Shown in pieces: positions 24,581 through 62,812 of a stretch of DNA of 64,000 nt (position 1 is its first letter; each line of letters begins with the position of its first letter). This DNA is from an uncultured Candidatus Saccharibacteria bacterium (lineage in GTDB: Bacteria > Patescibacteriota > Minisyncoccia > Phycocordibacterales > JAKFXT01). The stretch covers positions 4,986 through 68,985 of the forward strand of contig CAYLPX010000004.1 of NCBI GenBank assembly GCA_964385825.1, given 5' to 3'. Below the pieces are notes generated by a model. That model ran no database searches, was not told where the DNA came from, and saw nothing but the letters and a program-made list of their open reading frames with translations. A program made the position numbers and the translations under genes.

Positions 24581-24585
24581 AAGAA

Positions 24586-25704: not shown

Positions 25705-25712
25705 AATAAATA

Positions 25713-26102: not shown

Positions 26103-26127
26103 ATGAAGTATCTCTAGTATAACCTAC

Positions 26128-39257: not shown

Positions 39258-39260
39258 GGT

Positions 39261-46994: not shown

Positions 46995-47067
46995 GCGGGT
47001 ATAGCTCAGTTGGTAGAGCAGGCGTCTTATACACGCCCGGTCCTTGGTTCGAGTCCAAGTACCCGCA
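46995..47067 (+). tRNA. tRNA with UAU anticodon (predicted tRNA-Ile, rare isoacceptor)
   Basis: GCGGGTA TA GCTC AGTTGGT AGAGC A GGCGT CTTATAC ACGCC CGGTC CTTGG TTCGAGT CCAAG TACCCGC A. The anticodon loop is CU-UAU-AC. CCA not encoded. Confidence 0.65.
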
Positions 47068-47214
47068 CAAAGGATTTATCATCCATATACATAGACACCG
47101 AAGTCTCTAGTCAAATCCAGTACATACGATGCATAATTCTGTATTACTACTAATTAAATAGACCTCAATCAAACCTCGAGTAATAAAGTAGAGTTATTTT
47201 TAAATTTAAAAAAT

Positions 47215-48714: not shown

Positions 48715-48765
48715 ATAACTTAAAATTAAATTTCAAAATTTCTTGCAAATTTTTCAATAAAAAAA

Positions 48766-48787
48766 GAGGGGGATTGCTCCCCCTCAC
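48766..48787. terminator. rho-independent terminator for the GC-rich minus-strand gene
   Basis: GAGGGGG-ATTGC-TCCCCCTC stem with a run of 7 A on the plus strand (a T-run on the minus strand), immediately downstream of the 48801..49403 stop. Confidence 0.7.
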
Positions 48788-48800
48788 TTGTCGCGCCCGG

Positions 48801-49403
48801 CTATTCACCAGCCGAAGCGCTTTTCATCGGCGGCCAGACGTTGGTCTCGACGACTTCGTAGGTCTGGACCGGCCCGAACCGCGACACGCACTTGCCGGGC
48901 CGCTTCAGTTCCGGCACATACCAGCAGGTAACCGGGCCGCGGTCGTAGCCGTTGTCGAAGTTCACGACGACCTTCATGGCCGAGAACTTGCCGATGGACA
49001 GCACGACTTCCTCGACGCCCACAACCTCGGTTGCAACCTTGAGCTTCCCGGAAGCAGACCCGCGGTAGAACATCACCTCGTCGTTCTTCCACTTGTTCCC
49101 CGCAACGAGGGGGAACCGGAAGTACGGAATGTACGGGGAATACTGGGTGAAACTTTGCCCAGCCGCCCCCTTCATTTCCGCAGTGTTGGAAACGGGGTTC
49201 CATTCATTCGTGAGCACGTGACGATACCCGCCGTAGAGGATGTCGATCTTGGAGTCGTTGACCCCAGTCACCACGACCTCCTTGAAGGAATCGCCGACCT
49301 TGATTTTCCAGGCGTCACCCACCTGCACTTCAGGCCGGTTGAAATCTGCGGCCATTGCCACCCCCCCGACAAGGAGGAGCGCCAAAACAAAGCTCTTGAA
49401 CAT
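48801..49403 (-). CDS. secreted protein of unknown function encoded by a strongly GC-rich (~60%+) insert in an AT-rich region
   Basis: Signal peptide MFKSFVLALLLVGGVAMAADF. GC3-rich codons (GCC, GGC, CCG). The flanks return abruptly to AT-rich sequence. Confidence 0.6.
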   Translation of the reverse strand: MFKSFVLALLLVGGVAMAADFNRPEVQVGDAWKIKVGDSFKEVVVTGVNDSKIDILYGGYRHVLTNEWNPVSNTAEMKGAAGQSFTQYSPYIPYFRFPLVAGNKWKNDEVMFYRGSASGKLKVATEVVGVEEVVLSIGKFSAMKVVVNFDNGYDRGPVTCWYVPELKRPGKCVSRFGPVQTYEVVETNVWPPMKSASAGE

Positions 49404-49536
49404 GTCAATCTCCCTCCCCACTTAAGGGGTTAATACTACATTGAACTCCAACTTAAAGTATACATATATTTATAAAAAAAGCAAGTCCATGTGAATAAAG
49501 ATTGCGAAGCTTTACACCCTAAGATATCATGGATGC

Positions 49537-50436
49537 ATGTTAGTAAAATTCATAGCACACGCTGGAATAGCAATAGAAGAAGACGGATTTTTACTCCTCA
49601 TTGACCCCTGGTTTTTTGATAGTACCCCAGAAAATCCAATAATAGAAAGCATAGGTGGGGGATTTAAAACAATTGATTTTCAAATCCCAAAAACAACTGA
49701 AGATATTACCCTTTACAAACCTGATGCCATCCTTGTATCCCATTTCCATCCCCACCATTCCCCTGTACGTGATATTACGGAACTATTTACAAATACGTTG
49801 GATAGTAACAAGGAAATCCTAATCGGGTACCCTACGCCCAACGATGAAATGGAGCGTATGCTCATGAAAAATATTCCCTCTTCGGTGAAGAAAAAGGCTG
49901 TACGCCCCAATGATGAGATCCTCATCGGACCGTTTAAAATTACTGCCAAAAAACACACTGTCCCCTTTCATACTAGTTGGTACATCACCTCAAAAACTGG
50001 TTCCGTGTTGCATATCGCTGATGGGAGAATAAATAAAGATATTATGGACCGACGAATAGATGATACGTGGATAGAATTACAAGGCTTAAAACCATCGATT
50101 CTCTTTATAAGTAGCGGAGGTCATAGTCAACTTCAAAAAAATAAGGAGGGGGAACGAGTGGTAGTAGAAGCTGGTATTTTTACCGCAGTTGAAGCAGCGA
50201 AAGTAACAAGATTAATTAACCCTACCGCTGTAGCCCTAATAGGAATGTACAATCACAGTATTTGGAAAAATAGAGTTGAATACATACGACAGTCCTCTCA
50301 GGTTGAGGAGGAGTTTTTGTGGGCACTAACTTATCTTGACCCAAACATTAAGAAGCTTTTTATCAACCCGGGTTTTAGTATTGGATTATCAGAAAAGGAT
50401 CTAGAAGGAAAATGCAATTATTTCTCAAAAAACTAA
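49537..50436 (+). CDS. MBL-fold-like metallo-hydrolase (tentative)
   Basis: ILVSHFHPHHS resembles the HxHxDH metal-binding motif. 299 aa. Confidence 0.35.
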   Translation: MLVKFIAHAGIAIEEDGFLLLIDPWFFDSTPENPIIESIGGGFKTIDFQIPKTTEDITLYKPDAILVSHFHPHHSPVRDITELFTNTLDSNKEILIGYPTPNDEMERMLMKNIPSSVKKKAVRPNDEILIGPFKITAKKHTVPFHTSWYITSKTGSVLHIADGRINKDIMDRRIDDTWIELQGLKPSILFISSGGHSQLQKNKEGERVVVEAGIFTAVEAAKVTRLINPTAVALIGMYNHSIWKNRVEYIRQSSQVEEEFLWALTYLDPNIKKLFINPGFSIGLSEKDLEGKCNYFSKN

Positions 50437-50963
50437 AACTTAAGCTAATTTTATTTTTCTTAAAAGTACACCAAACCGACAAAATTGCACATAGAAAGAG
50501 CAGTTTTTTAGAGCATTTACTAGGTACTTATAACCTACTGGTAAGCTGGGAACTGGAGGAAAGTATTTGTCTTGCTGGTCTATTTCATAGTATTTATGGT
50601 ACAAAATTTTTCACTCACGCAACAGTAAGACAAGAGTTCCGTTTTTTGATTAAAATCTTGATCGGTGGAAAAGCTGAAAAACTTGCCTACCTTTTTTCTG
50701 TTTCAGAAAGACCTAGTGGATTTTTAAAAGGACTCGAAACTGGCTTTTTAGAAAATAGAATAACCCATAAACTTGAACAATTTCCACCTGAAATTATCCA
50801 TAATTTAGTTGCTATTGAGTGTGCGAACCTAATCGACCAAGGAGGTGGAGTTGAATTCCTAAAACAGATTATTCAAAAATTTTCAGCATTAAATAGCGGC
50901 TTCCTTAATGATAAAATTTTTAACACAATTAATGCTTTTTTAAACCAAAAACTAACTAATTGA
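50412..50963 (+). CDS. hypothetical protein (183 aa)
   Basis: His-rich helical protein. No firm assignment. Confidence 0.35.
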   Translation: MQLFLKKLKLKLILFFLKVHQTDKIAHRKSSFLEHLLGTYNLLVSWELEESICLAGLFHSIYGTKFFTHATVRQEFRFLIKILIGGKAEKLAYLFSVSERPSGFLKGLETGFLENRITHKLEQFPPEIIHNLVAIECANLIDQGGGVEFLKQIIQKFSALNSGFLNDKIFNTINAFLNQKLTN

Positions 50964-52532
50964 GTATCGATCCTTAGATAATATACCGTTCTTATCAAAA
51001 AATTTCTTTAATGCATCAACTAACTTCCAGTACTGAAGATTGCCCTCATTTCTTAGTCCAACATTCCTGATATCCCCCCTATTTAAGTAAAAATTCTTGA
51101 CTTCCCCCTCTTTTACTAGTGCCTCATAACACTCAAAGGCTTTCTTAGCTTCAGCATCATTCTTCTTATTAAAAGCGAAAAAGATCGTTGCTTTAAAATA
51201 GGTACTACGATAGCCTGTAAACTGAAAATTAAACGGAAATCCGTACTGTAAACAAATTTTCTCCATACTTTGTATCGCCTCAAAAGCTATTTCTGTATTT
51301 GCCGAAAAGGTACATGAGAAAAAAAGAAAACCGAGATTTTCATCTATATCAGGATTTAGATTTGACCGAAGAAAATTATTCCAAGAATCTGAAGAGTAAT
51401 CGTCTCTCACCCTAGATGAAAACACTACTTTGTTAGTCTCTCGTATGGGGAACCCCATGGCAAGCCTAAGTGACCCTAATAAAAAAATATATTTTTCTTT
51501 CAAAATAAATGGGAGCGGAAATCTAGCAGAACTCAGAATATTCAAATTTTTTTCTGAAAAGAAAAATAATGGTAACTCACTAATACTTTTAAATTTACTT
51601 TTTAGAACCTTCTCTGCCGCCCCCACTAGGACTGAATTAGCTGAAATAACTCCGACCACAAGCCATTTCCCCTTAGCGTCAGCAGTATAGAGGTTCGAAA
51701 AATAGTCCTTTTTAGCTTTTACTCGTTGCCTTCTACTCACTAATCTATCATCCGAGAAGATTTTTAAATAAACCAAAATATGAGGTAACTCCTCTAGGGA
51801 TTCCCTAATTTTAAAAATAACTTTCTTCAAATCTTTTCGTGAATCAAATTCGAAAGAAAATATTCTGCTTTTTTCAGTTTTTTTACTAAGCAATAATGTA
51901 GCATTTAAAACTATCCCAAAGTTACTCTGCATAAAGAGTCCGTCGAAATAGGGACCCAGTTTCCACTTAGAAGGAAGATTTGGTGAGTTACTTTCAAAAA
52001 TTTCTCCATTACCCAAAACAACGCGAAGGGAACAAACCGACTCAAAATGCTCCATATCAACGGATGATCCCATCCCATACTCAAGAAAATTACCTATAAT
52101 GCTACACGTCCCATGTGCCCCCGTTGTTGGAGTACTAAAGTTAAGATCCCTTTTTGCTAAAAAATCTGCGAGTAAATTTTGCGTCACCCCTGGCCCAACT
52201 GAAATCAGTCCCGTATCTTCATCAAGGATTTTAATGTCGAGCAACTGTGATAAATCCAAAATCACAGAATTTTGGCTTGTTGGCACGGCACTGCCATACC
52301 CCCAATTTTTTCCTGTACTAATAGTATAAAGAGAAATATGGTAACGATTCGCGATAGCTACAATAGATACAACCTGCTCTTCGCTCTTTGGTCTTAATGC
52401 TAAAAGAATTTCTTTTTTGATCCCCAAAGTTGAATTGCCATATTTATTTTGAGCAGTTACAGAGTCCAAAACACCCTCATTACCCAAAAGAAGCTTAAAC
52501 TCTGAAAGAGCCTGGTTGAAGCCCTCTTTCAT
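50952..52532 (-). CDS. FAD-binding PCMH-type oxidoreductase (FAD_binding_4 family)
   Basis: N-terminal FAD-binding domain pattern (...PKSEEQVVSIVAIANRYHISLYTISTGKNWGYGSA...). 526 aa. Confidence 0.55.
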   Translation of the reverse strand: MKEGFNQALSEFKLLLGNEGVLDSVTAQNKYGNSTLGIKKEILLALRPKSEEQVVSIVAIANRYHISLYTISTGKNWGYGSAVPTSQNSVILDLSQLLDIKILDEDTGLISVGPGVTQNLLADFLAKRDLNFSTPTTGAHGTCSIIGNFLEYGMGSSVDMEHFESVCSLRVVLGNGEIFESNSPNLPSKWKLGPYFDGLFMQSNFGIVLNATLLLSKKTEKSRIFSFEFDSRKDLKKVIFKIRESLEELPHILVYLKIFSDDRLVSRRQRVKAKKDYFSNLYTADAKGKWLVVGVISANSVLVGAAEKVLKSKFKSISELPLFFFSEKNLNILSSARFPLPFILKEKYIFLLGSLRLAMGFPIRETNKVVFSSRVRDDYSSDSWNNFLRSNLNPDIDENLGFLFFSCTFSANTEIAFEAIQSMEKICLQYGFPFNFQFTGYRSTYFKATIFFAFNKKNDAEAKKAFECYEALVKEGEVKNFYLNRGDIRNVGLRNEGNLQYWKLVDALKKFFDKNGILSKDRYSIS

Positions 52533-52541
52533 ACAAATAAC

Positions 52542-53624
52542 CTAAAAATTTTGTCCAATGGTCTGAAGATATTTCTTGAAATCAGGTGAAACTTTAGCCA
52601 AAATAAATACTTGCTGCTTTACAGGATAAGTATCAGGTTGCTTAAGTAAAGATTGGTAATAATTTTTAAGTGTATCGGAACTAATAGCCTCCTCAGTACT
52701 ATAGGGCTTTAGTATTTGAACAATATCATTTACCCTATCCTCTCCAAAATTTTTCTTAACGAAAGTAGCGTAGTAAAACCTAATTCGATACAAATTTTTA
52801 ACACCATACACACTTACAGCATATTTTTCCCCCTCTGATAAGGCCAATTTATAAGCATCCTCCTGCTCGGCGAGAGTATAGTTCTTTAATATCTTGGCTA
52901 CATTCCCGATACCAATGGCCCTATACATATACATCTCAATCATTCGAGAATTTTCATATATTTTATCCTTAAGCAATCCATTACCATCAACTATAGTTTT
53001 GTTGAGCTCATTTGCAAAGGCAATTTTATCAATACTTTTAGGAAGAGAATCACTTATGAAAAGATGGCTTTGAGTATAAACAATTGAAAACTTAGCGAGA
53101 GCATTCGGATAGAGCTCATCAGAATATTTCCAAAGTCCGATAGCAAATACTCGGGAATTAAAAGGCTCGCCTAATTTCGGAAAGTATGTTGAGTATGGTG
53201 CTTCATTAAAATTCTCGCGAATAAATTCTTCACTACTAAAAGCCAGTAAATCTGCCAAATCATCTAGCACAATAGCTCTAGCAAGAGGTGGATTTTTAAG
53301 ATCACCTATAAGGTCCTTATAAATTTTAACTGCTTCAGCTCTATCGGAACCTTCATTGCGAGCAAAAAGCTGGTAAGCAATCATGGCCTTAGCCCGAATG
53401 TTATCCATTAGGCTCAGTTTATCTACGAGCTTTTCATAGGTAGCAATCGTCTTTGAACGATCACCTGAATTATAAGCATCGAGCGCCTCTTTTCTAGCTT
53501 GTGTAATTTCAGCCTTTTTTGAATCTGTACCAGATTTGAAAAAAGTCAATTTATCTCTAAACATAAAAGTCCCCAGTATTAAAATCAATACAAAAATTAA
53601 ACCGAAAGTTTTTCTTAAATTCAT
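52542..53624 (-). CDS. hypothetical membrane-anchored helical-repeat protein
   Basis: N-terminal TM. TPR-like helical content. Confidence 0.35.
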   Translation of the reverse strand: MNLRKTFGLIFVLILILGTFMFRDKLTFFKSGTDSKKAEITQARKEALDAYNSGDRSKTIATYEKLVDKLSLMDNIRAKAMIAYQLFARNEGSDRAEAVKIYKDLIGDLKNPPLARAIVLDDLADLLAFSSEEFIRENFNEAPYSTYFPKLGEPFNSRVFAIGLWKYSDELYPNALAKFSIVYTQSHLFISDSLPKSIDKIAFANELNKTIVDGNGLLKDKIYENSRMIEMYMYRAIGIGNVAKILKNYTLAEQEDAYKLALSEGEKYAVSVYGVKNLYRIRFYYATFVKKNFGEDRVNDIVQILKPYSTEEAISSDTLKNYYQSLLKQPDTYPVKQQVFILAKVSPDFKKYLQTIGQNF

Positions 53625-53664
53625 AAATCAATTAAAATACTAAGGAACTAATTATCGCAAAATA

Positions 53665-53913
53665 CTAGCAGTCACTCCCACCTGGGTCTGGGTCTGGACA
53701 AGATGACCCACACGGGTCAGGGAATGGTGATGGGCCGCCAGGTACATCTGCAAATGCAGTTGGAACGGTCAGCGCATCTCTAATACTGAGACCCTTTTTT
53801 TGACTCTTAAGATTATCTGACTGGTTTTCCTCACCCTTTTGAAAGAAATTGATAAAAACCATAGCTAAGGTTAGGCCAAAAATATAGGTGAATTTAAATA
53901 TTTTTTTAAACAT
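53665..53913 (-). CDS. candidate RiPP precursor peptide (Cys/Ser/Gly/Pro/Asp-rich C-terminal core)
   Basis: 82 aa with a hydrophobic N-terminus and a C-terminal ...PGGPSPFPDPCGSSCPDPDPGGSDC. It lies directly downstream of ycaO on the same strand. Confidence 0.5.
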   Translation of the reverse strand: MFKKIFKFTYIFGLTLAMVFINFFQKGEENQSDNLKSQKKGLSIRDALTVPTAFADVPGGPSPFPDPCGSSCPDPDPGGSDC

Positions 53914-54013
53914 ATTCTTTACTTATTGAACTCATTTTACACCTCGACTCTTGTAAAAACAAGACCACTAATGTTGATAACAAAAAAACGGGTGACTTAA
54001 ATACTGTGCTAAT

Positions 54014-55585
54014 TTATGGGAATGGGTGTGGTAGCTTATTTATTAAATTTTCACACCCTGATGCGTCCTGACCCAACTCTTCCCACAGTCGTGGATGAGT
54101 TAACGGAGCATGTACTTCCTTTAAATACAGAGGGATGAGCGTAGGGATTATAACCCTAACAACATGATACCCCAACGCATCCAAAATTTTATTTTTTACT
54201 TCATATACATATATATCACTCTCACGATTCTGAGATCTCAGAATATATAAAACATGCTCTAACTCGCTCTTTGAATCCCCAAAAGACCTTTCTTCACCTA
54301 CTAGATCGACCTCTTTTCCTGAGATAAAAAAATTAATGTTTGAAGAAAAAGTTCCAGGCTCAGCCCAAAGTCTTTGTCTATTTAAATGATCAACTGAAAT
54401 GTCAAAAAATGGTTTGTAGTCCTGGGGTAGTTGAAACTTATTTTTGAAACCAACAGTTCGGTACCATTTTCTAACAGAAAGTGCTTCTACAACTGCCTTA
54501 TGAATCGCCTCCTGCTTATTCCAGCCACATCCTCCACCCATTGCAACTGCGACTCCATTAAGCGAAGTATCTAAAATTACAACAATAAAAGAGGGTACTT
54601 GCAGGTTAGTTGTCACATCCATAATCTCTACTTGAAGGCCGTAGCGTTTGCAATTTTCCAAAATCCTTTTCAAATTTTGGGCCGTTAGTGATTTGTGACT
54701 TATCCTAGGTGGAGTCTTAGTTTGCATCCAATACCAAAGAAATGAATCCCGCTGTATAACCTCATAAGCACCACTTAAAACTGCTTCCTCATAAGTAAAA
54801 TGCCCACTTGCTCCGTTTGTATTTGACTCTCGTATGAGCGGCTCCATACCCTCTCTTTTATAAGTCCAGAAAACTAATTGAGCAGGAATTAAAATCTTCT
54901 TCTTTGTCGCCAGAGAGTATCCTTCCACCCAACCAAAAGGACTATGTTCGTCGGAGACAAAATGTTTAAATTCTTTTTTCTGTATGTCAGAAAAGTTGTT
55001 AAGTATTTTGGGATTTAAAACATTTTTACCCTGCAGATTTAATTCCTTAAATGATCCATGTATTAATTTATTTCTTTTATATACTAGTAAAAAATACCTC
55101 TCCAAAAACTCACCTAATGCCTTTGATACTGAAATATCTGGATCATCAAAATGAGAGGAACATAAAACAGGTAAGTCCTTAGCGTACCCATCAGTAACTA
55201 CCTTTAATTGGAAAAGATTAAAGCCATAAAGTCTTGGCTCATCATTTAAATTTTCTCGACAAAAAAAGTGTGGGTCGCTAATTAACTGATTACTATGGAG
55301 ATAATTTAATACGGGCTGCCAATAGTAAAGGTTAGGGTAATGCGGATTATACGCAAATGAATACATGTTTCCTAATCTAAAAAAACTTAAGAAATACTCT
55401 TTAAATATCTTTACCATTTTTTCAGAAAAAGTAAGTGGTTGTTTAAACCTTCCTCGTCGTCCATTAAGTGACTCATTGAGTAGATGATCCGCCCTAAAAA
55501 AACCAATTTCATTGGTTAAAAAAAACATTTGACCATTTCTATCTTCTTTTTTTAATTCTGAACTCATATCTTTACCCAACAACAA
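54014..55585 (-). CDS. ycaO: YcaO-domain protein (ATP-dependent cyclodehydratase/amide-activating enzyme) with a ~160-aa N-terminal extension
   Basis: SKALGEFLERYF (ATP-binding E-x-x-E-R) and ESNTNGASGHFTYEEAVLSGAYEVIQRDSF, matching the conserved YcaO core. Confidence 0.75.
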   Translation of the reverse strand: MLLGKDMSSELKKEDRNGQMFFLTNEIGFFRADHLLNESLNGRRGRFKQPLTFSEKMVKIFKEYFLSFFRLGNMYSFAYNPHYPNLYYWQPVLNYLHSNQLISDPHFFCRENLNDEPRLYGFNLFQLKVVTDGYAKDLPVLCSSHFDDPDISVSKALGEFLERYFLLVYKRNKLIHGSFKELNLQGKNVLNPKILNNFSDIQKKEFKHFVSDEHSPFGWVEGYSLATKKKILIPAQLVFWTYKREGMEPLIRESNTNGASGHFTYEEAVLSGAYEVIQRDSFLWYWMQTKTPPRISHKSLTAQNLKRILENCKRYGLQVEIMDVTTNLQVPSFIVVILDTSLNGVAVAMGGGCGWNKQEAIHKAVVEALSVRKWYRTVGFKNKFQLPQDYKPFFDISVDHLNRQRLWAEPGTFSSNINFFISGKEVDLVGEERSFGDSKSELEHVLYILRSQNRESDIYVYEVKNKILDALGYHVVRVIIPTLIPLYLKEVHAPLTHPRLWEELGQDASGCENLINKLPHPFP

Positions 55586-56309
55586 GTGTATAGACTAAAG
55601 ACTCGCCAACACCGTCTATATCAAGTATTTCATCTTCTACCATGACATCCTCAGTTGCTGCCAGAGCGCAGCAGTTGAGCCCCAGTGCCTTTGAATTTAA
55701 ATAAAAACCCTGGCCGACATGCCCCGCCTCAATCAACACCATACGGTAGCCTCGTTCGCCATATTTTAATTGATTTCGTTCAAAAGTTGCTGTGATAAAA
55801 AAAATTAAGGAACCTCTTTCAATCCAAGAAACTCCTAAATATTTTGAAATTTCCGCCTTCTCAAAATCCCGCTCCCATAGAACTGTTGCTCTATGATTTT
55901 CTACATCATAATGATAAAGTCCTGGTGCTATATCGGTATCAATAGTCTCCGTTACTAAAAAATAGACTTCTAGAGGATAACGTGCCCCCCCAGAAGGGTA
56001 TGCTCGGTGATTCATCCCATTTACAAATGAAGTAATACCTGCACTATACTCCAAAAGGATGGAAAGTTGGTTTAATGTTATTTTTTTGCCATTAATTATC
56101 CTACTTGTAACCCTCTCTCTTATTGCATCAAACATATTAAAGGCGGGGTTTATTTTTAACAAATTTACCTGTCTAAACCTTGGATACTTTTTATAATAGA
56201 CAGTTCTCCATTCTTCAGGCCAATCCCGAAAATCTACGCTAATAGGGGGGTGTCCCCTACCCTTATCTTTTGAAATCTTGTGGAAAAAAGTAGAAAAAAG
56301 TTGATTCAT
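55572..56309 (-). CDS. SagB/ThcOx-type FMN-dependent dehydrogenase (nitroreductase superfamily)
   Basis: RAYPSGGARYPLEVY signature. 14-nt overlap with ycaO. Confidence 0.7.
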   Translation of the reverse strand: MNQLFSTFFHKISKDKGRGHPPISVDFRDWPEEWRTVYYKKYPRFRQVNLLKINPAFNMFDAIRERVTSRIINGKKITLNQLSILLEYSAGITSFVNGMNHRAYPSGGARYPLEVYFLVTETIDTDIAPGLYHYDVENHRATVLWERDFEKAEISKYLGVSWIERGSLIFFITATFERNQLKYGERGYRMVLIEAGHVGQGFYLNSKALGLNCCALAATEDVMVEDEILDIDGVGESLVYTLVVG

Positions 56310-56338
56310 TTTTAGTACAACATCTAATCAAAGGTTGG

Positions 56339-57124
56339 TTACCAAGTTGGATTAACATGAAACCACTGGACTATAGTTACTCTTGGTTTTTTATTACCCT
56401 GGAAAGCATGGAATGACTTAGGGCTAATGTGGAAACCAAAAAGTCTATTCTGTTTTGGATCTACAACTTCACATGGCTCAGAATTTTTTGAAAGGTATAT
56501 ACCTGTCCCTCCTCCATCCCCTTCCTGCCAATCATCACCAAAAAGATACATAATAATGGCAATAACCCTCCGAGCACCAAAACTTGCGCCCATCTGATTA
56601 TTTTCTTCTTTTGTGCGAGTGACTATAGGAACTACAGAATTTGGGAGGCTGTCGCCCTTAAAAAAATACTTTACGGCATAATCATGATGCACAAATCCGG
56701 TTCTGTCTCCCGATGGGTGATAGTGTATTGCCAAATCAGTAGCAAAACCAGTTGATTGATTAAAAATCTTTGAAATAAATTGATTCCAAGTAACTGAAAA
56801 GAAGAAATTCAAAACTTGATGTTCATCAGCCCTCGGGACATACAGATAACCATCATATGCAAATTCTCCAGTAAGACTAAAGGGGTGTAGTCGTGAAAGA
56901 TCTGCCTGTTCACCAAAACCACGGTCAATAACAGATTTCACATATGCCTCTATATCGCTATAAAAACTGGGGGTAAAAAAATTATCAACTACTATATGGG
57001 GAAACGGTTCTTGGTTAGGGACTACTATTTGTGGAGTAACATACTCCTCAAGGCGGATACTCTCTTTAAGTTCTGTGCTTTTTTTCTCAAGATTATTTTT
57101 GATTTTATCTAGAAAGGTAATCAT
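56339..57124 (-). CDS. putative 2OG-Fe(II) oxygenase-like tailoring enzyme (paralog A)
   Basis: PFPHIVVDNFF N-terminal motif and His/Asp clusters (HYHPSGD...HHD). Paralog of 58407..59276. Confidence 0.45.
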   Translation of the reverse strand: MITFLDKIKNNLEKKSTELKESIRLEEYVTPQIVVPNQEPFPHIVVDNFFTPSFYSDIEAYVKSVIDRGFGEQADLSRLHPFSLTGEFAYDGYLYVPRADEHQVLNFFFSVTWNQFISKIFNQSTGFATDLAIHYHPSGDRTGFVHHDYAVKYFFKGDSLPNSVVPIVTRTKEENNQMGASFGARRVIAIIMYLFGDDWQEGDGGGTGIYLSKNSEPCEVVDPKQNRLFGFHISPKSFHAFQGNKKPRVTIVQWFHVNPTW

Positions 57125-57168
57125 GTTGCTATAGTACCAAGACCAATACCATTCGCAAGTTTTGAAAC

Positions 57169-57873
57169 TCAGTAGCTTTTCTCTATTGAAAAATTAGAGT
57201 CACTTTCATCAACCATACTCCAAAAAGTGTCAACGGTTTTTTGTGCTGTTTTTTCATCCCTAATAGAACCAGGGGCCAGCACCTTGGTGGGAATTTTATA
57301 CGTATCAAAAAAGAAGTCGTGTGCATATGCGGCTAGGATATGAAGTGCAGCCTTAGCGGCACTATAACTAGCCAACTCTTTTCGTGCTGTTTTTCCAGTA
57401 CCAGCGCCACTACCAATAAATATAATCTTTTTATTATTTTTGGCATTCTCCTCACTATTATTGAAGAAAATTGGAGCGCACTGTTTTGAGAATTCGATGG
57501 GTACATATACATCAAGCAGCATTTCATACAAAAAAGATTCTTTCTTTAGATCTTGAATAGAGGCAAAACCGTTGTAATATGCTCCCAGCACCAAAACATC
57601 CACCCGACCTAAAACCTTACCCAAATAACTTACAGTTTTCCCAAGATCTTTACCTATATCGAAAAAAATATTAACTACACCCTCCCCGAGCAAGGGGGTG
57701 CGCCTTGAAATATTTACCAAAAGTACATCATTGGGTTTATGCTTTAAAAAAAGCCTGCCTAAAGCTCCACCAGCCCCGGTCATAAGAACAACCTTCCTGT
57801 ATCCATCAATATCAATTGATTTCAGGGGATTCTTTGTTGAAAAAGATGGCCATTTCATGCTTTTACTATACAC
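57169..57873 (-). CDS. short-chain dehydrogenase/reductase (SDR)
   Basis: TGAGGALG Rossmann motif. YSAAKAAL catalytic YxxxK. Confidence 0.7.
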   Translation of the reverse strand: MYSKSMKWPSFSTKNPLKSIDIDGYRKVVLMTGAGGALGRLFLKHKPNDVLLVNISRRTPLLGEGVVNIFFDIGKDLGKTVSYLGKVLGRVDVLVLGAYYNGFASIQDLKKESFLYEMLLDVYVPIEFSKQCAPIFFNNSEENAKNNKKIIFIGSGAGTGKTARKELASYSAAKAALHILAAYAHDFFFDTYKIPTKVLAPGSIRDEKTAQKTVDTFWSMVDESDSNFSIEKSY

Positions 57874-57920
57874 CTTTCACCCTCTCGCAAGTAATAAAAA
57901 TGATGTTATACTAATTTCAT

Positions 57921-58403
57921 ATGGAAAATACTATTGTACAAAACACCCCAAAAAAGTGGTTAATTATAGGCAAAAAAATAGCTCCTTTTTTCTTTACAGC
58001 GCTTATCACAGCTTTGGTAATTTATCTTACCCCGCTTAAACACATAGCGCTCATAGAACCAACTATCAGAGACATTGATGCGCAAAAAATCTACACCGAA
58101 ATGACGGCTAATCCCGACAAATATATTTTTATTGACGTCCGACCTGTTGCAGCTTATACCAAACTCCACGCACAAGGTGCCATGAATATTGAGCTATACA
58201 AAATGTATTATGAAAGAAAGAATCTTCCTAAGCATGGCAAAAAGATAGTACTTATCTGTAGTGGAGGCGTTGCTTCTGGCGTAGCGTTTAGTTATCTAGA
58301 ACACTATGGTTTTTTTAATATTTACCGAGTTGAGGGAGGAATAGAAAATTGGGTTAAAGCAGGACTACCTGTTGTAAGTGCTGCACAAAATCAGAGTTCA
58401 TAG
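57921..58403 (+). CDS. membrane-anchored rhodanese-domain sulfurtransferase
   Basis: FIDVRP...IVLICSGGVASG, with the active-site Cys in a CSGG loop. 160 aa. Confidence 0.65.
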   Translation: MENTIVQNTPKKWLIIGKKIAPFFFTALITALVIYLTPLKHIALIEPTIRDIDAQKIYTEMTANPDKYIFIDVRPVAAYTKLHAQGAMNIELYKMYYERKNLPKHGKKIVLICSGGVASGVAFSYLEHYGFFNIYRVEGGIENWVKAGLPVVSAAQNQSS

Positions 58404-58406
58404 CCC

Positions 58407-59276
58407 CTACCGATCGTTAAAAGTATATCCAATATTTTTTGAAGGGTCTCCGTAGAACCACTGTGTTACAGTTGAGCGTGGGGTGTTGTTTTCTTCAACA
58501 GCATGATACCCCCCTAAAGATACTTCGAAAGCAAGGATTCTATTTCGTAGCGGCTCTATCTTCTTAATAGGAGTTGATTTTTGCATTTTATCATAAAGTT
58601 CTTCTCCATTCCCTCGCGCCACCTCTTTGGTAGGACTAGAAATTATTTTTTTTATATCGCCAATTGGTGCCTTGTATAACAAAGTTCTTCCAGCATCTTC
58701 TTCTTTCCAATCATCATTAAAAATGTACATTACCAGAGCGATAATTCTAACCCCTCCCACTAATGAAATATCTTGGTTGTTAGTCTCAAGCAACTTTTTC
58801 TTTTTATAAATAACACCATTTGATAGACGGCTGCTCTCTAAAAAAGAGTCGTGAATAAAATCTGTATGAGCATGACTAGTTTTATCTCCCACCTTATGAT
58901 GATGAAGTGCAAATAAGGTCAGTAAATTTGTTTGTTTTTTAAAAATTTCGGCAAAATAATTATTCCACCCAACCGAATAAAAAAGGTCTAAAATTGAATT
59001 TTCACTAGGAGCCGGTGAATAGCCTTCTACGGTAAACTTCCCCTTGAAGCCTTCTAGGTTTGTAAATGAACCATTCTCATATTTCTGTTTATGGAATTTC
59101 TCTAATTGTGCTAGAAAATCCTCCTTAAAAAAATTGTCCACGACTATGTGCGGAAATGGCTCGTTAATTACCTCAATTGGCTGCTTGTTGATATATTCAA
59201 ATATATCGAAATCCTCAGCAAGAAGAGCTGCTTTCCTTTGCAACTTATATTTGAGTTCTGAAAAATCAGGAAACAT
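58407..59276 (-). CDS. putative 2OG-Fe(II) oxygenase-like tailoring enzyme (paralog B)
   Basis: EPFPHIVVDNFF, HHHKVGD...HTD. Aligns with 56339..57124. Confidence 0.45.
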   Translation of the reverse strand: MFPDFSELKYKLQRKAALLAEDFDIFEYINKQPIEVINEPFPHIVVDNFFKEDFLAQLEKFHKQKYENGSFTNLEGFKGKFTVEGYSPAPSENSILDLFYSVGWNNYFAEIFKKQTNLLTLFALHHHKVGDKTSHAHTDFIHDSFLESSRLSNGVIYKKKKLLETNNQDISLVGGVRIIALVMYIFNDDWKEEDAGRTLLYKAPIGDIKKIISSPTKEVARGNGEELYDKMQKSTPIKKIEPLRNRILAFEVSLGGYHAVEENNTPRSTVTQWFYGDPSKNIGYTFNDR

Positions 59277-59319: not shown

Positions 59320-60012
59320 TTAGACAACTATTTCTCCATCAGAAAGGCGGACAATACGATCGGCGAGGTGTCCGTATTCTTCTTCGTGGGTCACCATAAT
59401 AATGGTCTGGCCGTTTTTATTTAAATCAAGAAGAAGATCAAGTACAAGTTTGCCAGAATAAGTATCCAAGTTAGCTGTTGGCTCATCAGCAAAAATTATT
59501 TCGGGGGCATGTGCTACAGCGCGGGCTACCGCTGCACGCTGCTGCTCACCTCCTGAAAGGCCCGAGGGTAAATTATTCTGACGTGACTCAAGTCCAATAC
59601 GGGAAAGTGCTTGGAGGGCCTTCATACGCGCTACAGGAGTCTTATAACCCTGCATGAGTAGTGGAACCATGATGTTTTCAATGGCAGTCAATTCTGGGAT
59701 AAGCGCATAGTCCTGAAACACGTATCCAAGCTTATTGAGACGGAATGTTGTTTTCTCCTCTTCGGTAAGTGCACTTACTTCATGTTCTTCTATTTTAATA
59801 ACCCCTGAAGTAGGTTTATCGAGCAAACTCATCTGGTAGAGAAAGGTACTTTTTCCAGCCCCCGAGCGTCCCATGATGGCCACAAACTCTCCGCGATAGC
59901 AGGTGAAATTAAGTCCGCGTAGTACTCGTGTCTCTACCCCGCCCTTATCAGTATAGGTTTTAGTGAGCCCTGAAACTTCAATTATTTTTTTTGTTGTTGG
60001 AGTTGGAATCAT
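59320..60012 (-). CDS. ABC transporter ATP-binding protein (MacB/LolD-type)
   Basis: Walker [10 protein letters not shown], signature [14 protein letters not shown], Walker B IIFADEP. Confidence 0.9.
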
Positions 60013-60018
60013 ATATGT

Positions 60019-61281
60019 TTATCGGCCCAAAATGGCATTAAGGGTGTTACGGCGAACAATGAGTTTAGCGGGAATATATCCAGCGATAACCGTAGTCACC
60101 ACAAGAATTGCCACCCTGATCAAAGTCTCATCAAGTGGGGCGACCAAAATACCATCACTAAATGGGAAGTTGATAGGGTGCGCATCAAGTGCTGGTTTTA
60201 TAAGCCCATACACCACCACAAGTCCAAGCCCCGATCCTACCACTGCGTAAAAAATAGACTGAAGCACATAAGATATTTCAATAGCAGCTTCACTAATACC
60301 AATACCCTTGAGGATTCCAATATACCGTCTTCGAGTAATGGCGTTAATGAAAATCACAATAAAGAGCGTAACAGCTGCCACCACAAGACCAATACTGGAA
60401 ATCGCATTACCAAGGAGGGCGAATGTATTCTTAATATCTATCAGAAACTTCGGCTGAGCCTCTATCCACGTCTTAATATCTGCCCCTTTTGCAAAATCAT
60501 TATTAATAAGTACACCCTTTACATAATCAGCCTTATTAATATCGTTGAGGAATACCGCGATCTCAGACCCATCGAAATTATGTGCATTGGAAAGTGCACG
60601 AAGTTCGTGGTCGGTCATGAAGATTTTGAAAGCAATATCATCAACCTTAGCCTTCAGAATACCTTTCACGGTATATTCTTTAGTCACATTCCCAACTGTG
60701 AGCCTAACCTTACTTCCAATACTCACTTTTTTTAGCAGTGTAAAAACTTGATCAGGTACCACGCTATACTGCTCCAAAAAGTTATATCCAATAATAATTT
60801 GATCGCTATCCTTAGGATCTAAGTACTCCCCTTCAATGATGTGTGATGAGAGATTAGTTGCCTCATCTTCCGCCACAGGATCAATACCTGCTATATTTGC
60901 CCCGAGTCTATTAGGCGCCTCATCAAAATGTCGCTCACGATAGTTAGCTTCAACAGTTCCGCCTGAAATTAAGCGAACTGAATAATGCTTAACTTCGGGC
61001 AAACTCTGTAGTACCGCTGAGATCTCACTTGTATGTTCTATAGTTTCTTTGTTCTTAAGATTCTTCACATACACATGCCCTGAGTACTGTTCACGGTAGG
61101 CTGATACTGATCCTTCGATTAGCCCCACAAGCACCCCCGAAACCACTACCAAGTTAAGGAAGGTCAATGTCATTACGAAAATAATAAGTAATGTAGTCCA
61201 AAGACTCGCACGACGTATCTGTCGAAGCGCTAAGAAAAATCCTACCTTAAATATTACCCCTCTATTTTTTAGTGTCTGCAT
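60019..61281 (-). CDS. ABC transporter permease (FtsX/MacB-like, 4 TM with a large periplasmic loop)
   Basis: 420 aa. N-terminal TM, ~220-aa periplasmic domain, 3 C-terminal TMs. Confidence 0.8.
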   Translation of the reverse strand: MQTLKNRGVIFKVGFFLALRQIRRASLWTTLLIIFVMTLTFLNLVVVSGVLVGLIEGSVSAYREQYSGHVYVKNLKNKETIEHTSEISAVLQSLPEVKHYSVRLISGGTVEANYRERHFDEAPNRLGANIAGIDPVAEDEATNLSSHIIEGEYLDPKDSDQIIIGYNFLEQYSVVPDQVFTLLKKVSIGSKVRLTVGNVTKEYTVKGILKAKVDDIAFKIFMTDHELRALSNAHNFDGSEIAVFLNDINKADYVKGVLINNDFAKGADIKTWIEAQPKFLIDIKNTFALLGNAISSIGLVVAAVTLFIVIFINAITRRRYIGILKGIGISEAAIEISYVLQSIFYAVVGSGLGLVVVYGLIKPALDAHPINFPFSDGILVAPLDETLIRVAILVVTTVIAGYIPAKLIVRRNTLNAILGR

Positions 61282-62812
61282 TTTGTATCACAACTACTTG
61301 CCCTGCAACAAGCCCACTTAGTACCTCAACCTCCCCCTTATCACCATGCGCACCAATAGTAATTAAGACTTCCTTAGTTTGATCGCCCTCTTTCACATCC
61401 ACATATTTCTTACCATCGCGGCTCGTAAGCGCATTCGCTGGTACGGTGAGTACGCCTTCCTTAATAGCAGTTGTGATATACACATTAGCGGTGAGACCAC
61501 TCTTAATACGTGCGTCATCACTCTGTATAGCTAAAGTCACTTTATAAGTCGGCACATTATCAACCAATGTTTCAGCTGGATCCACAAGCGCTACCTCAGC
61601 AGGGAAAAGTGTCTCTGTTCCGAGTGCATCAAAAGAAATACTAGCCTTGTCCCCCTTCTTAATACCAGTACTATCAAGCTCCGGAACCTGCACTTCAATC
61701 TTGTAACTATTTTTTGAATTCACCGTAATAAGTGCTGTATTGGCATACGCAATCTCGCCACTCTTCGCATCCATCTTGGTCACTACTCCATTAAGTGGAG
61801 AGATAATCTGGTTAGTCCGAACTGTAGCTTCTGCATCTCGAACACGAGCTTCTTGTGCTGCGATCTCTTCTGGGTCAGATCCTGCTTTTATAAGCGCGAG
61901 GGCTGATTCACTCTTTTTAACCGCCACCTTAGCGCTCGCAATAGCATTTATCTTATCTGAGAGTGTGGCTAGAACTGTAGCAACACTATTGTTAGCTGTA
62001 CTTGCATTTGTTCTGTAGGTATCAAAGTTACTGTCCCCAAGCATACAATTCTCGTTGAGTAGCGCGGTGATATTCTTAAGCAAATCGCGAAATACAAGCA
62101 TCTGTAAACGTGCGTCACTCAACGCTGTCTCTCTATCTTGATCAGTAGTTGCGCTTGCTGCTGCACTAACTGAAGCACGGAGTGCAACTAGCGCATCTTC
62201 GCTTTTAGCGCGAAGCGTAAGTATGGTGTTAGTAAGATCATTATCACAGGTAGTAAAGTTAAGCTTGTAGCCACTTTTCATAGTCCCGTTGAACATACCT
62301 GAAAGCTTAACTCGCACCGCATCTTCTGATTTTGCAAGTGCATCATTAACCACATCAAACGATGTATTATACTCTGCAGTCAAAGCCTGCCTGGCTACAT
62401 CAACATCTGCTTGTTTTACACTGACTTCCTCGGGACGACTACCGCGCTTCAACTGATCTAGCTTAGATTGCTCTTCTTTAAGTTTTGCGAGCGCGGAAGA
62501 GAGGTCGAGGCTAGCGAGCGCAGTACCAACATATACCTGATCCCCCACGCTCACATACGCCCCCTGTATACGGCCAGTTTTTTCGAACGCAAGAGAAACT
62601 TCATCATAAGGCTTAACCCGACCAGTCACTGCTACCTGCTCACGAAGCTCTTGTGGAGCAACGGTAAAGTACTGATTGGTATCCCCCGTACTACTCTTAA
62701 ACCCAAAATAAAAAATGCCCAAAGCCACTACCACAATAAGTAATGTCTTCTTTTTATGCTCACGAACAAAAGCCAAAACCCCCGAACCGTATTCTTTAAT
62801 TTTTGTAAACAT
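61262..62812 (-). CDS. HlyD-family periplasmic adaptor (membrane fusion protein)
   Basis: N-terminal TM, long coiled-coil, C-terminal beta-barrel. 516 aa. Overlaps the permease gene. Confidence 0.75.
   Translation of the reverse strand: MFTKIKEYGSGVLAFVREHKKKTLLIVVVALGIFYFGFKSSTGDTNQYFTVAPQELREQVAVTGRVKPYDEVSLAFEKTGRIQGAYVSVGDQVYVGTALASLDLSSALAKLKEEQSKLDQLKRGSRPEEVSVKQADVDVARQALTAEYNTSFDVVNDALAKSEDAVRVKLSGMFNGTMKSGYKLNFTTCDNDLTNTILTLRAKSEDALVALRASVSAAASATTDQDRETALSDARLQMLVFRDLLKNITALLNENCMLGDSNFDTYRTNASTANNSVATVLATLSDKINAIASAKVAVKKSESALALIKAGSDPEEIAAQEARVRDAEATVRTNQIISPLNGVVTKMDAKSGEIAYANTALITVNSKNSYKIEVQVPELDSTGIKKGDKASISFDALGTETLFPAEVALVDPAETLVDNVPTYKVTLAIQSDDARIKSGLTANVYITTAIKEGVLTVPANALTSRDGKKYVDVKEGDQTKEVLITIGAHGDKGEVEVLSGLVAGQVVVIQNADTKK

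Follow-up and report, generated by a model that had tools for sequence, protein, structure and literature searches.

A likely azole-forming RiPP gene cluster with a signal-like precursor leader, of a form widespread in Patescibacteria

We find that the YcaO locus of the window, a 64,000-nucleotide stretch of DNA from an uncultured Candidatus Saccharibacteria bacterium, is very probably a genuine biosynthetic cluster whose product is a small ribosomal peptide (RiPP) with an 82-aa precursor. The overall best explanation, to which we assign a probability of about 0.7, is a LAP/TOMM-type RiPP cluster in a form widespread in Patescibacteria (CPR), and azol(in)e (thiazole/oxazole) chemistry of the product is likely from the genes encoded. 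A preliminary description had proposed a YcaO and SagB RiPP cluster acting on the adjacent 82-aa peptide; this core reading is upheld by profile matches and by conservation of the gene set and peptide architecture in dozens of loci, and all open reading frames then listed are present at their coordinates (Table 1). Four features escaped the same description: a leader that looks like a secretion signal, the A-x-A↓D site, P360 as a conserved partner, and how far the island really extends. It also recognized no characterized RiPP class, but the cluster can be classified because it resembles LAP clusters in CPR bacteria already reported by genome mining, as described in passages of that report (PMC7298704). 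Our comparison set comprises the window locus and 82 others, 83 in total, nearly all of which come from Patescibacteria/CPR metagenome-assembled genomes.

Table 1. Features of the cluster and its immediate surroundings (window coordinates)
Feature	Position	Strand	Evidence or remark
AMP-binding (acyl/aryl-adenylate-forming) enzyme, 499 aa	47215..48714	+	Pfam AMP-binding 6.4e-66 and AMP-binding_C; GC 0.32
sec206, 206-aa secreted protein	48801..49421	-	Matched at E 1.7e-12 by an HMM built on 14 homologs (12 related loci)
Weak metallo-beta-lactamase (MBL)-fold protein, 299 aa	49537..50436	+	Lactamase_B_3 22 bits, just below cutoff 24
DUF6817 protein, 183 aa	50412..50963	+	Pfam DUF6817 7.2e-22; fused with MBL-like domain in related loci
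FAD-linked oxidase, vanillyl-alcohol oxidase / p-cresol methylhydroxylase type, 526 aa	50952..52532	-	FAD_binding_4 1.4e-22
P360, 360 aa, all-helical, one N-terminal TM helix	52542..53624	-	Immediately downstream of precursor
82-aa precursor ORF	53665-53913	-	Ends in ...AFADVPGGPSPFPDPCGSSCPDPDPGGSDC; also called by public gene callers
Precursor leader, residues 1-55	53749..53913	-	MFKK, hydrophobic helix, 34-aa linker, end ...PTAFA
Precursor core, residues 56-82 and stop	53665..53748	-	DVPGGPSPFPDPCGSSCPDPDPGGSDC
YcaO, whole gene	54014-55585	-	Pfam YcaO, 180.8 bits
YcaO cyclodehydratase domain, residues ~151-523	54014..55135	-	C-terminal PxPxP motif PHPFP
YcaO clade-specific N-terminal domain, residues 1-150	55136..55585	-	Found in this YcaO clade
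SagB-type FMN-dependent azoline dehydrogenase, 245 aa	55572-56309	-	TIGR03605; Pfam Nitroreductase 2.1e-14
2OG/Fe(II) oxygenase 1, 261 aa, prolyl-hydroxylase-like	56339..57124	-	2OG-FeII_Oxy_4 38 bits, Oxy_3 34 bits; cutoff 27
SDR, 234 aa	57169..57873	-	adh_short 7.1e-11
Membrane-anchored rhodanese, 160 aa, N-terminal TM helix	57921..58403	+	Rhodanese 4.7e-14; loop CSGGVAS
2OG/Fe(II) oxygenase 2, 289 aa	58407..59276	-	2OG-FeII_Oxy_3 34 bits, Oxy_4 33 bits
MacB-type ABC exporter (ATPase, FtsX permease, HlyD-like adaptor)	59320..62812	-	ABC_tran, FtsX, HlyD_D23 matches

Profile searches confirm both central enzymes. The 523-aa protein matches the Pfam YcaO family over residues 155-483 (E 5.5e-53). 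Among PDB structures it is related to the YcaO domains of MusD, TruD, and LynD (E 1e-26 to 1e-24), and the YcaO profile also matches McbD. Its best NCBIfam match is TIGR03604 (SagD, TOMM) at 199 bits, under the cutoff of 219. Across 28 YcaO homologs, ExxER and the C-terminal P-H-P-F-P are fully or almost fully conserved, and a C-terminal PxPxP is typical of azoline-forming YcaOs; at the level of sequence, the protein matches azoline-forming enzymes best. The N-terminal extension noted earlier is real and conserved, with homologs spanning 92-99% of the query and W89, L96, D115, and P117 invariant within it, and this ~150-aa domain is confined to the present YcaO clade and matches no known fold. 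SagB scores 131 bits against TIGR03605 (cutoff 78), contains a Lys-Tyr motif (...LKYGERGYR...), and has homologs in 67/83 loci (window included). The 14-nt overlap described between the two genes holds with a TTG start for YcaO, but becomes a 4-nt gap with the ATG at codon 7 chosen by the ENA caller (517 aa). As first described, an E1-like partner is absent: Pfam, NCBIfam, and public annotation record no ThiF/E1-like, ocin-ThiF, or TfuA domain within +/-10 kb of the cluster.

The 82-aa ORF proposed as precursor is conserved in kind, with ORFs of the same architecture standing beside YcaO in related loci and a precursor-like ORF in 41 of the 83, counting the window. In this architecture, a Lys-rich N terminus leads into a hydrophobic helix of ~20 aa, a linker of 7-54 aa connects the helix to an A-x-A↓D site, and the core that follows is acidic. 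Among 43 unique leaders we count 2-6 Lys/Arg residues and a hydrophobic segment of ~20 aa, followed by a linker with a median of 20 aa; at the cleavage-type site, A or V occupies position -3 in 41/45 and D or E position +1 in 45/45, with A at -1 and P at +3. The earlier picture of the precursor needs correction at its N terminus, which is a signal-anchor-like hydrophobic helix. The positive-inside rule places 29 of 41 precursors N-in/C-out and 4 in the opposite orientation. Signal peptidase I normally cleaves 3-7 residues past the hydrophobic segment, and the A-x-A site of the window lies 34 residues past it (family median 20); we propose Sec/signal-peptidase processing tentatively, at somewhat less than even odds.

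The family cores after this site are acidic and rich in Gly, Ser, Cys, and Asp (G 33%, S 16%, D 11%, A 9%, C 8%, K 0.1%, R 0%), part of them lack Cys altogether, and some closely resemble microcin B17, for example, DAGGSAGCGGDGGSGGSGDGG... in locus L002. The window core, DVPGGPSPFPDPCGSSCPDPDPGGSDC, holds 3 Cys, 4 Ser, 8 Pro (30% Pro), 5 Asp, and no Lys or Arg. Cores are hypervariable and leaders conserved, which is a RiPP signature.

The genes first listed are real, but the unit is larger, including P360 (52542-53624) and probably everything from 47215. Per-gene GC content places the low-GC island at 47215-59276, beyond the extent first given; the AT-rich block itself is borne out, with cluster genes at 0.32-0.39 and flanks at 0.41-0.46, the exceptions inside the island being the 82-aa ORF (0.43) and an insert (0.59). 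Iterated HMM searches find the P360 family in 53/83 loci (window included), and 36 of 46 pattern-matching precursor-like ORFs lie directly upstream of it; in most loci, the peptide stands between YcaO and P360. P360 has no Pfam or NCBIfam match, and its AF2 model is all-alpha, of low confidence, with non-significant TPR-like matches and nothing else in Foldseek.

The left-most island gene, encoding the AMP-binding enzyme, has a homolog (E 4.8e-74) in the syntenic Peribacteria locus L033, where P360 is immediately followed by that homolog, and its product is a probable accessory enzyme of the cluster. The sec206 gene has no Pfam match and a GC of 0.589 within the 0.32-0.39 island. Homologs of the MBL-like protein are fused to DUF6817 in five related loci (L016, L052, L064, L071, and L077), and L014 has just the MBL part, where its contig ends. 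Pfam matches bear out the SDR, membrane rhodanese, and FAD oxidase as originally named. The order of 2OG gene then SDR gene recurs in L001; 10 related loci carry rhodanese orthologs (E 1e-36 to 1e-53), mostly adjoining P360, sometimes as three tandem copies, and with the active-site Cys conserved; and the FAD oxidase has PCMH, VAO, and eugenol oxidase as PDB relatives (E ~1e-34) and homologs in L033, L012, and L057. On the other side, a MacB-type exporter adjoins the cluster, and its membership is uncertain: its GC is 0.41-0.45, as in the flanking genome, and homologs lie near 1 of 82 other loci.

The two oxygenases are paralogous, as had been proposed: both score above the 2OG-FeII_Oxy_3/4 cutoff, they are 32% identical, and EPFPHIVVDNFF is common to both. 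Oxygenase 1 retains HxD...H, and its best solved relatives are of the OGFOD1/Tpa1 and collagen-type prolyl 4-hydroxylase kinds (OGFOD1 4nhx, E 2e-6, and P4H 6t8m), a likeness that covers just the C-terminal half of the fold, ~70 residues. Of the earlier suggestion of Asp/Pro hydroxylases, these relatives favor the Pro side and the Asp side is less likely; the enzymes look like prolyl rather than Asp hydroxylases, and a separate Asp/Arg hydroxylase family (PF05118) occurs in related loci but is absent from the window. CinX is a RiPP Asp hydroxylase, and by analogy CinX-like Asp hydroxylation by the window oxygenases is possible. Median core Pro content is 15% in loci with this type of oxygenase versus 2.5% in those without it (p = 0.002, n = 5 vs 42, a value that comes from five such loci and ignores phylogeny), and we put Pro hydroxylation of the core at just under an even chance.

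What we observe is the identity of the domains, synteny, and a conserved peptide family with its motif; from these we infer a pathway in which each chemical step, the sequence of events, the route of export, the cleaving enzyme, and the biological role are putative. The 82-aa peptide would carry a leader in two parts: a Sec/YidC-type signal anchor (Lys-rich N terminus and hydrophobic helix), then a linker of ~34 aa in which the enzyme recognition sequence probably lies. YcaO would act in the cytoplasm, ahead of translocation, using ATP to cyclodehydrate Cys (possibly Ser) residues of the core to azolines, which the SagB flavoprotein would oxidize to azoles. Because there is no E1-like/Ocin-ThiF partner, leader binding may fall to the private N-terminal domain of YcaO or to P360. 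The two oxygenases would hydroxylate the abundant prolines, and the SDR may oxidize the resulting alcohols. The acidic, Lys/Arg-free modified tail would then cross the membrane and be cut free at AFA↓D, for which signal peptidase I is the simplest candidate. Membrane-anchored P360 and rhodanese, whose sequences are compatible with either orientation, would bind the peptide or act on it at the membrane.

The same azole chemistry could operate on a leader that is not a Sec signal but a tether, anchoring the precursor to a synthetase complex at the membrane for which P360 is the scaffold; another protease would free the product and the adjacent MacB-type ABC transporter would export it. The unusual distance of the A-x-A site from the hydrophobic segment, the anchored, helical, TPR-like P360 encoded next to the precursor, and the abutting ABC/FtsX/HlyD exporter all fit this arrangement, and AgrD offers a precedent as a RiPP-like peptide whose membrane-associated N-terminal leader is removed at the membrane by the protease MroQ (PMC10885120). 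AgrD nevertheless differs from the window precursor in that its helix is amphipathic rather than a full hydrophobic signal anchor, in its processing by AgrB together with MroQ, and in its thiolactone chemistry. We judge tethering unlikely, given the flank-like GC and rarity of the exporter, the almost perfect adherence to the -3/-1 small-residue rule recognized by signal peptidase I, the lack of any protease conserved across related clusters, and P360 homologs with no conserved catalytic-type residues.

A different product is conceivable if YcaO installs backbone thioamides with the rhodanese as sulfur source, an alternative raised at the outset that now appears weak and highly improbable. SagB, for which thioamidation has no use, neighbors YcaO here and occurs in most loci, TfuA is absent from the recorded domains, the C-terminal PxPxP points to azoline formation, and the rhodanese is membrane-anchored and missing from most loci; these outweigh the shared lack of an E1/ThiF partner and the intact rhodanese Cys conserved in 11 loci (window included). 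The McrA-thioamidation YcaO model does match, weakly, at 91 bits, but the TOMM model scores twice as high. Least probable of all is that the 82-aa ORF encodes a small membrane or secreted protein while YcaO and SagB modify another peptide or protein. No Pfam or NCBIfam model matches the peptide, its nearest sequence-level relative among related loci is marginal (E 4e-4), and its tightest genomic partner is P360, not YcaO; yet it lies between the two in most loci, the Gly/Ser/Cys-rich cores are like known LAP cores and hypervariable against conserved leaders, and no other conserved small ORF is a substrate candidate in related loci.

As a LAP/TOMM-type system, the cluster shares with microcin B17 and other LAPs (plantazolicin, klebsazolicin, phazolicin, and streptolysin S) a YcaO with a SagB/McbC-type dehydrogenase and a Gly/Ser/Cys-rich core, but those systems need an E1-like (McbB/SagC) or Ocin-ThiF-like partner with a leader-binding RRE, of which the window has none. 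Known LAP leaders are soluble and removed by TldD/E or dedicated proteases, and the products are exported by ABC transporters; the window leader, in contrast, is signal-anchor-like with an A-x-A site. Across the family's precursors, an apparent ordinary secretion signal takes the place of the classical leader. Standalone YcaOs (bottromycin BotC/BotCD and thioamide YcaO/TfuA pairs) likewise have no E1/ThiF-type partner, but to our knowledge they are not paired with SagB and do not have this N-terminal domain, and the TfuA of the thioamide-forming pairs is absent from the window.

The closest reported clusters are the 110 CPR LAP clusters in 93 genomes of Sharrar et al. (2020, mBio; PMC7298704), 89 of them with an adjacent nitroreductase. 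In the passages of that report available to us, an antiSMASH-level description, YcaO adjoins both a nitroreductase/SagB gene and the gene of a putative ~84-aa precursor, as in the window, and there is no mention of a signal-anchor leader, an A-x-A↓D site, a P360 partner, a private N-terminal YcaO domain, or a missing E1/ThiF partner. Beyond what those passages describe, the window encodes a pair of P4H-like oxygenases along with an SDR, rhodanese, VAO-type oxidase, and adenylating enzyme; it has no peptidase, whereas the example cluster does. The window locus represents a little-studied cluster family that is common among the ultra-small bacteria of the candidate phyla.

Using the YcaO protein as bait, we scanned 185,579 species genomes and retrieved 80 related loci, nearly all from MAGs of Patescibacteria/CPR (Parcubacteria/Paceibacteria, Kaiser-, Adler-, Moran-, Sungii-, Lipton-, Peri- and Gracilibacteria, as well as entries labelled Saccharibacteria), with a few distant matches in Myxococcota, Bdellovibrionales and Acidobacteria. 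The whole analysis is computational, and gene calls in the related loci are crude. With the window counted in, the set comprises 83 loci, of which 67 have a SagB homolog, 53 have, by iterated HMM, a member of the family of P360 (a 360-aa membrane-anchored protein encoded directly downstream of the precursor), and 41 have a peptide ORF of the same design. The closest synteny is found in a Peribacteria MAG (L033), in the order SagB, another gene, YcaO, peptide, P360, AMP-ligase, ..., FAD oxidase, ..., rhodanese. Every ORF of the preliminary description was recovered where it had been placed (Table), including the SDR, the FAD_binding_4 oxidase, and the rhodanese with its N-terminal hydrophobic helix. 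This kind of cluster is already known, since Sharrar et al. (2020), in the passages available to us, describe an antiSMASH "LAP" cluster from a CPR genome with a YcaO, a nitroreductase, a peptidase, and an 84-aa precursor, and 110 clusters like it across another 93 CPR genomes, the nitroreductase adjoining YcaO in 89 of the 110 (PMC7298704). The earlier view that this gene combination matches no characterised RiPP class needs qualifying; term searches of the literature, including those passages, returned no signal-anchor leader with an A-x-A↓D site (↓, proposed leader/core cleavage), no mention of a P360 partner, no private N-terminal YcaO domain with a missing RRE partner, and no tailoring-enzyme set like that of the window.

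Table. Positions of features in the window and in related YcaO loci (L numbers)
Feature	Sequence	Position	Strand
Type IV pilus genes PilB and PilC, type III restriction enzyme	Window	23366-27864; 36777-40871	-
LOOT RNA (RF03000)	Window	36174-36294	+
tRNA-Ile	Window	46995-47068	+
Low-GC island, AMP-binding gene to oxygenase 2	Window	47215-59276	
Hairpin terminator	Window	48766-48785	
206-aa secreted protein	Window	48801-49421	-
Flavin oxidase	Window	50952-52532	-
P360	Window	52542-53624	-
Precursor, 82 aa	Window	53665-53913	-
YcaO, 523 aa	Window	54014-55585	-
SagB	Window	55572-56309	
Oxygenase 1	Window	56339-57124	-
Rhodanese	Window	57921-58403	+
Oxygenase 2	Window	58407-59276	-
MacB-type ABC exporter	Window	59320-62812	
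~610-650-aa protein	L001	4782-6638	
Precursor missed by public gene caller	L002	7163-7531	-
PRTase-beta-propeller fusion	L002	7555-9201	
PRTase-beta-propeller fusion	L055	7484-9142	
Rhodanese triplet	L004	6343-7881	
Rhodanese triplet	L008	12619-14156	
Rhodanese triplet	L011	4069-5567	

The HMM check bears out the assignment of the 523-aa protein to YcaO (Pfam PF02624, 180.8 bits against a cutoff of 25.7, E = 5.5e-53, residues 155-483). Its best NCBIfam model is TIGR03604 (TOMM cyclodehydratase, SagD family) at 199.4 bits over residues 150-523, which is below the curated cutoff of 219.25 bits and leaves the protein outside that subfamily as curated. In an alignment with 28 homologs the ExxER motif, E275/R279, and other charged positions, both acidic and basic, do not vary, and the C-terminal N-P-W-P-H-P-F-P is conserved almost perfectly; the window protein ends in ...KLPHPFP, with P519, H520, F522, and P523 invariant and P521 kept in at least 90% of homologs. 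A PxPxP C-terminal tail marks azoline-forming cyclodehydratases. The neighboring gene passes the SagB-type dehydrogenase model (TIGR03605, 131.2 bits against 78.4), in agreement with its earlier naming, and the 14-nt overlap described between the two genes holds with a TTG start of YcaO but not with the ATG six codons later chosen by the ENA gene caller, which gives 517 aa and a 4-nt gap.

When searched against the PDB, the YcaO family profile recovers McbD and, at E = 1e-26 to 1e-24, the YcaO domains of MusD, TruD, and LynD; in these three the alignment is confined to the YcaO half (residues ~421-681) and leaves out the E1-like/RRE half. As had been noted for E1-like and Ocin-ThiF partners, domain matches reveal no ThiF/E1-like, Ocin-ThiF, or TfuA protein in any ORF of the island or within ±10 kb. 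The ~44 YcaO homologs found in a large protein collection (30-38% identity) are almost all 500-535 aa long, with 92-99% of the query covered, which shows the N-terminal extension to be genuine and conserved. That it hides an RRE or E1-like domain is not supported: PDB profile searches found nothing, and neither an RRE-like fold nor an RRE-like sequence match was detected in the domain, whose AF2 model, from a 27-sequence alignment, is of moderate confidence (pLDDT 70).

The reading of the 82-aa ORF as the precursor is strengthened by the survey: the architecture recurs in the 41 loci with hypervariable cores, and 36 of the 46 pattern-matching ORFs are followed immediately by a P360 gene in the same orientation. 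No curated Pfam or NCBIfam family recognises these peptides. For L002 the public annotation calls a 56-aa product in the wrong frame and misses the true precursor, ...LAHA↓DAGGSAGCGGDGG...; precursors of this family are probably under-annotated. Across 43 unique leaders, 2-6 Lys/Arg and essentially no acidic residue precede a hydrophobic segment of ~20 residues (mean Kyte-Doolittle 2.25), and a linker of 7-54 residues (median 20) follows. Position -3 of the proposed site is A (33) or V (8) in 41 of 45 cases, -2 is bulky (H16, Y6, K5, F4), -1 is A, +1 is D (40) or E (5), +2 is A/V, and +3 is often P. The window leader (residues 1-55) reads MFKK, then FTYIFGLTLAMVFINFF, then ...A-F-A↓D, and has the positive n-region, the h-region, and the small residues at -3/-1 of a Sec signal peptide. 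In Sec signal peptides a c-region of ~3-7 residues separates the h-region from the cleavage site; the linker is 34 residues in the window, and this long distance argues against a textbook signal peptide. The positive-inside rule favors N-in/C-out for 29 of 41 precursors and the reverse for 4.

The window core (residues 56-82, ...PTAFA↓DVPGGPSPFPDPCGSSCPDPDPGGSDC) contains 3 Cys and 4 Ser in 27 aa and is 30% Pro. Other cores differ widely, for example, ...EAKA↓DLYVAPPACDPYTGAGCGYSGGYSCCGPCCPSGG... in L001 and ...LAHA↓DAGGSAGCGGDGGSGGSGDGGDGGGGGG... in L002, the latter resembling microcin B17. Cores of the family have a median length of 34 aa and are composed of G 33, S 16, D 11, A 9, C 8, E 5, P 4, and T 4%, with K at 0.1% and R at 0%; some of this composition is imposed by the ORF search pattern, but the virtual lack of Lys/Arg is not.

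Both PFPHIVVDNFF proteins match PF13640 and PF13661 above cutoff and are thus 2OG/Fe(II) oxygenases, paralogous as suspected (32% identical), with the iron triads HHD...H and HTD...H visible in their alignment. The closest PDB entries to oxygenase 1 are OGFOD1, a ribosomal prolyl hydroxylase (E = 2e-6), and a prolyl 4-hydroxylase, which favors the Pro side of their earlier candidacy as Asp/Pro hydroxylases, a predicted activity; the PF05118 Asp/Arg hydroxylases of some related loci are a different family. Oxygenase homologs occur in four other loci (L016, L057, L014, and L001), and cores in the five oxygenase loci are richer in Pro (median 15% vs 2.5% elsewhere; Mann-Whitney p = 0.002, n = 5 vs 42, without phylogeny correction). 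The flavin oxidase is of the VAO/PCMH type (PDB relatives at E ~1e-34) and falls in the 4-alkylphenol-oxidising group, which is also found in L012, L033, and L057; the cores of these loci contain Tyr (many in L012), and the window core has no Tyr and one Phe.

The rhodanese (PF00581, 53 bits against a cutoff of 22) has the loop C-S-G-G-V-A-S, keeps its catalytic Cys in all orthologs, and is more conserved than YcaO (10 related loci, E = 1e-36 to 1e-53). It usually adjoins P360, sometimes in three copies; one subclade has three tandem membrane-anchored paralogs directly after P360 (Table), the second and third with a divergent active-site loop (IFCEEN...). Cores ending in Cys are enriched in rhodanese loci (5/13 vs 1/31, Fisher p = 0.006, a small comparison without phylogeny correction, the lineages not being independent), which we regard as a lead, not a result. 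The positive-inside rule is ambiguous on the membrane orientation of both the rhodanese and P360.

P360 consists of one N-terminal hydrophobic helix and an all-helical body, and conserves only structural residues, including a C-terminal PEFKxWLxxxGW motif. A word-indexed homolog search with P360 alone returned only P360, so its relatives had to be found with a profile. Its AF2 model is of low confidence (pLDDT 62), and its Foldseek matches, all TPR-like, fall short of significance (best E = 0.04). With no family match and no conserved His/Ser/Cys/Asp/Glu, it was rejected as a candidate leader protease; we read its sequence as that of a putative non-enzymatic peptide-binding or scaffold protein.

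Comparison across loci shows four protein families that are common among the relatives but have no member in the window. These are a TPR protein with a TM anchor, a secreted Ig-like protein, a fusion of a PRTase with a beta-propeller, and an AMMECR1-like protein of ~620 aa. The fusion, a phosphoribosyltransferase-like domain joined to a PQQ/BamB-type beta-propeller (~550 aa), occurs in 33 related loci and is among the most frequent neighbors of the YcaO cluster. The AMMECR1-like protein (~610-650 aa across loci) lies directly upstream of YcaO in ~15 loci (L033, L001, L006, L007, L034, L038, and others) and shows, by eye, QxxDG-type repeats in its C-terminal half. BLAST clustering had suggested that it is a YcaO-like paralog, but this was an artefact of single linkage: YcaO is matched by only 3 of the 18 members, and the remainder appear to be a different protein with a weak AMMECR1 match. 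It could be the missing partner protein in the loci that carry it.

Per-gene GC delimits an island of 0.32-0.39 (flanks 0.41-0.46), so the AT-rich block described earlier is real but larger than claimed and takes in further genes left of the cluster: an adenylate-forming enzyme, a 206-aa secreted protein, a weak MBL-fold protein, a DUF6817 protein, the VAO/PCMH-type oxidase, and P360. Exceptions are the 82-aa ORF (0.43) and one insert of 0.59; the MacB-type ABC exporter has a GC like that of the flanking genome. The gene of the 206-aa protein (GC 0.589) is followed by a strong hairpin terminator, and homologs stand beside P360 in ~12 CPR loci that are related and richer in GC; this suggests that a high-GC relative donated the cluster-associated gene very recently. 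Inside the cluster, no convincing terminator follows the precursor gene. The tRNA-Ile (TAT anticodon; UAU) at the left edge, between RecG and the AMP-ligase, fits a tRNA-associated island, and a search for tRNA-derived direct repeats or att-like sites bounding the island found none. The window lies within a 127.7-kb metagenomic contig (ENA ERZ4216102), and the arrangement next to RecG recurs in several other samples. Presence/absence polymorphism beside RecG was considered and rejected: all six contexts retrieved carry the left end, with the AMP-ligase directly after RecG, two of them ending within the AMP-ligase gene. Elsewhere in the window are an Rfam LOOT RNA match (69.7 bits against a gathering threshold of 46.4), unrelated to the cluster, and PilB, PilC, and a type III restriction enzyme, named by the source annotation of identical proteins, the last adjoined by an N6/N4 methyltransferase (Pfam matches). 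Type IV pilus and restriction genes are typical surface and defence equipment of CPR bacteria.

From the observed domain identities, synteny, and peptide-family conservation, we infer every step of the following route. In the cytoplasm, YcaO would turn the Cys, and perhaps Ser, residues of the core into azolines, which SagB would convert to azoles; the oxygenases would hydroxylate core Pro, and the SDR may carry out a further oxidation. The acidic, Lys/Arg-free tail would then cross the membrane behind its signal-anchor and be cut free at AFA↓D, for which signal peptidase I is the most economical candidate, with P360 and the rhodanese acting at the membrane.

The chemistry and the export step each have a rival. 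The preliminary description had raised thioamidation, with the rhodanese as a possible sulfur donor, but thioamides are an unlikely product of this YcaO, given the SagB dehydrogenase, the PxPxP tail, the absence of TfuA from the cluster ORFs and ±10 kb, and a higher score with the TOMM model than with the McrA-thioamidation model of NCBIfam (TIGR03266), against which the protein reaches 91 bits, far below the cutoff of 365. Appreciable weight goes to a leader that is simply a membrane tether, with cleavage by some protease and export by an ABC transporter, mainly because of the long distance from the hydrophobic segment to the site; the positive n-region, h-region, and small -3/-1 residues are those expected of the secretion signal that we propose instead. 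Signal peptidase I is not among the RiPP leader proteases listed in a 2023 review, which describes AgrD/MroQ as a case located at the membrane (PMC10885120).

Release of a signal-anchored peptide by signal peptidase I is the first of four departures that, taken jointly, would make these loci a distinct, lineage-wide azole-peptide class of CPR bacteria, a tentative reading to which we give a probability of roughly 0.3. The leader is proposed to serve also as a signal anchor for general secretion, with its export and removal left to Sec/YidC and signal peptidase I, which would make a dedicated transporter or protease unnecessary and would suit reduced genomes. Substrate recognition is proposed to pass through the private N-terminal YcaO domain rather than an RRE-bearing partner, and P360 to handle the acidic modified tail at the membrane, where in one subclade the rhodanese would act on a C-terminal Cys. 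Rather than a classical antibiotic, the product may be a cell-surface/host-interaction factor or a metal binder.

At ~12 kb, the window cluster is a compact test case, with one precursor, prolyl-hydroxylase-like tailoring enzymes, and a sequence available for synthesis. If its YcaO truly works without an E1/ThiF partner, two enzymes would make up a minimal system for installing azoles, and a new domain for leader recognition would be at hand; if the leader is truly a secretion signal cut by signal peptidase, it would offer an unusual, portable form of RiPP export and maturation. CPR/Patescibacteria are abundant, uncultured episymbionts with reduced genomes and are thought to be poor in natural products, and their few candidate pathways to specialised metabolites include this YcaO/SagB system, which many of their lineages conserve.
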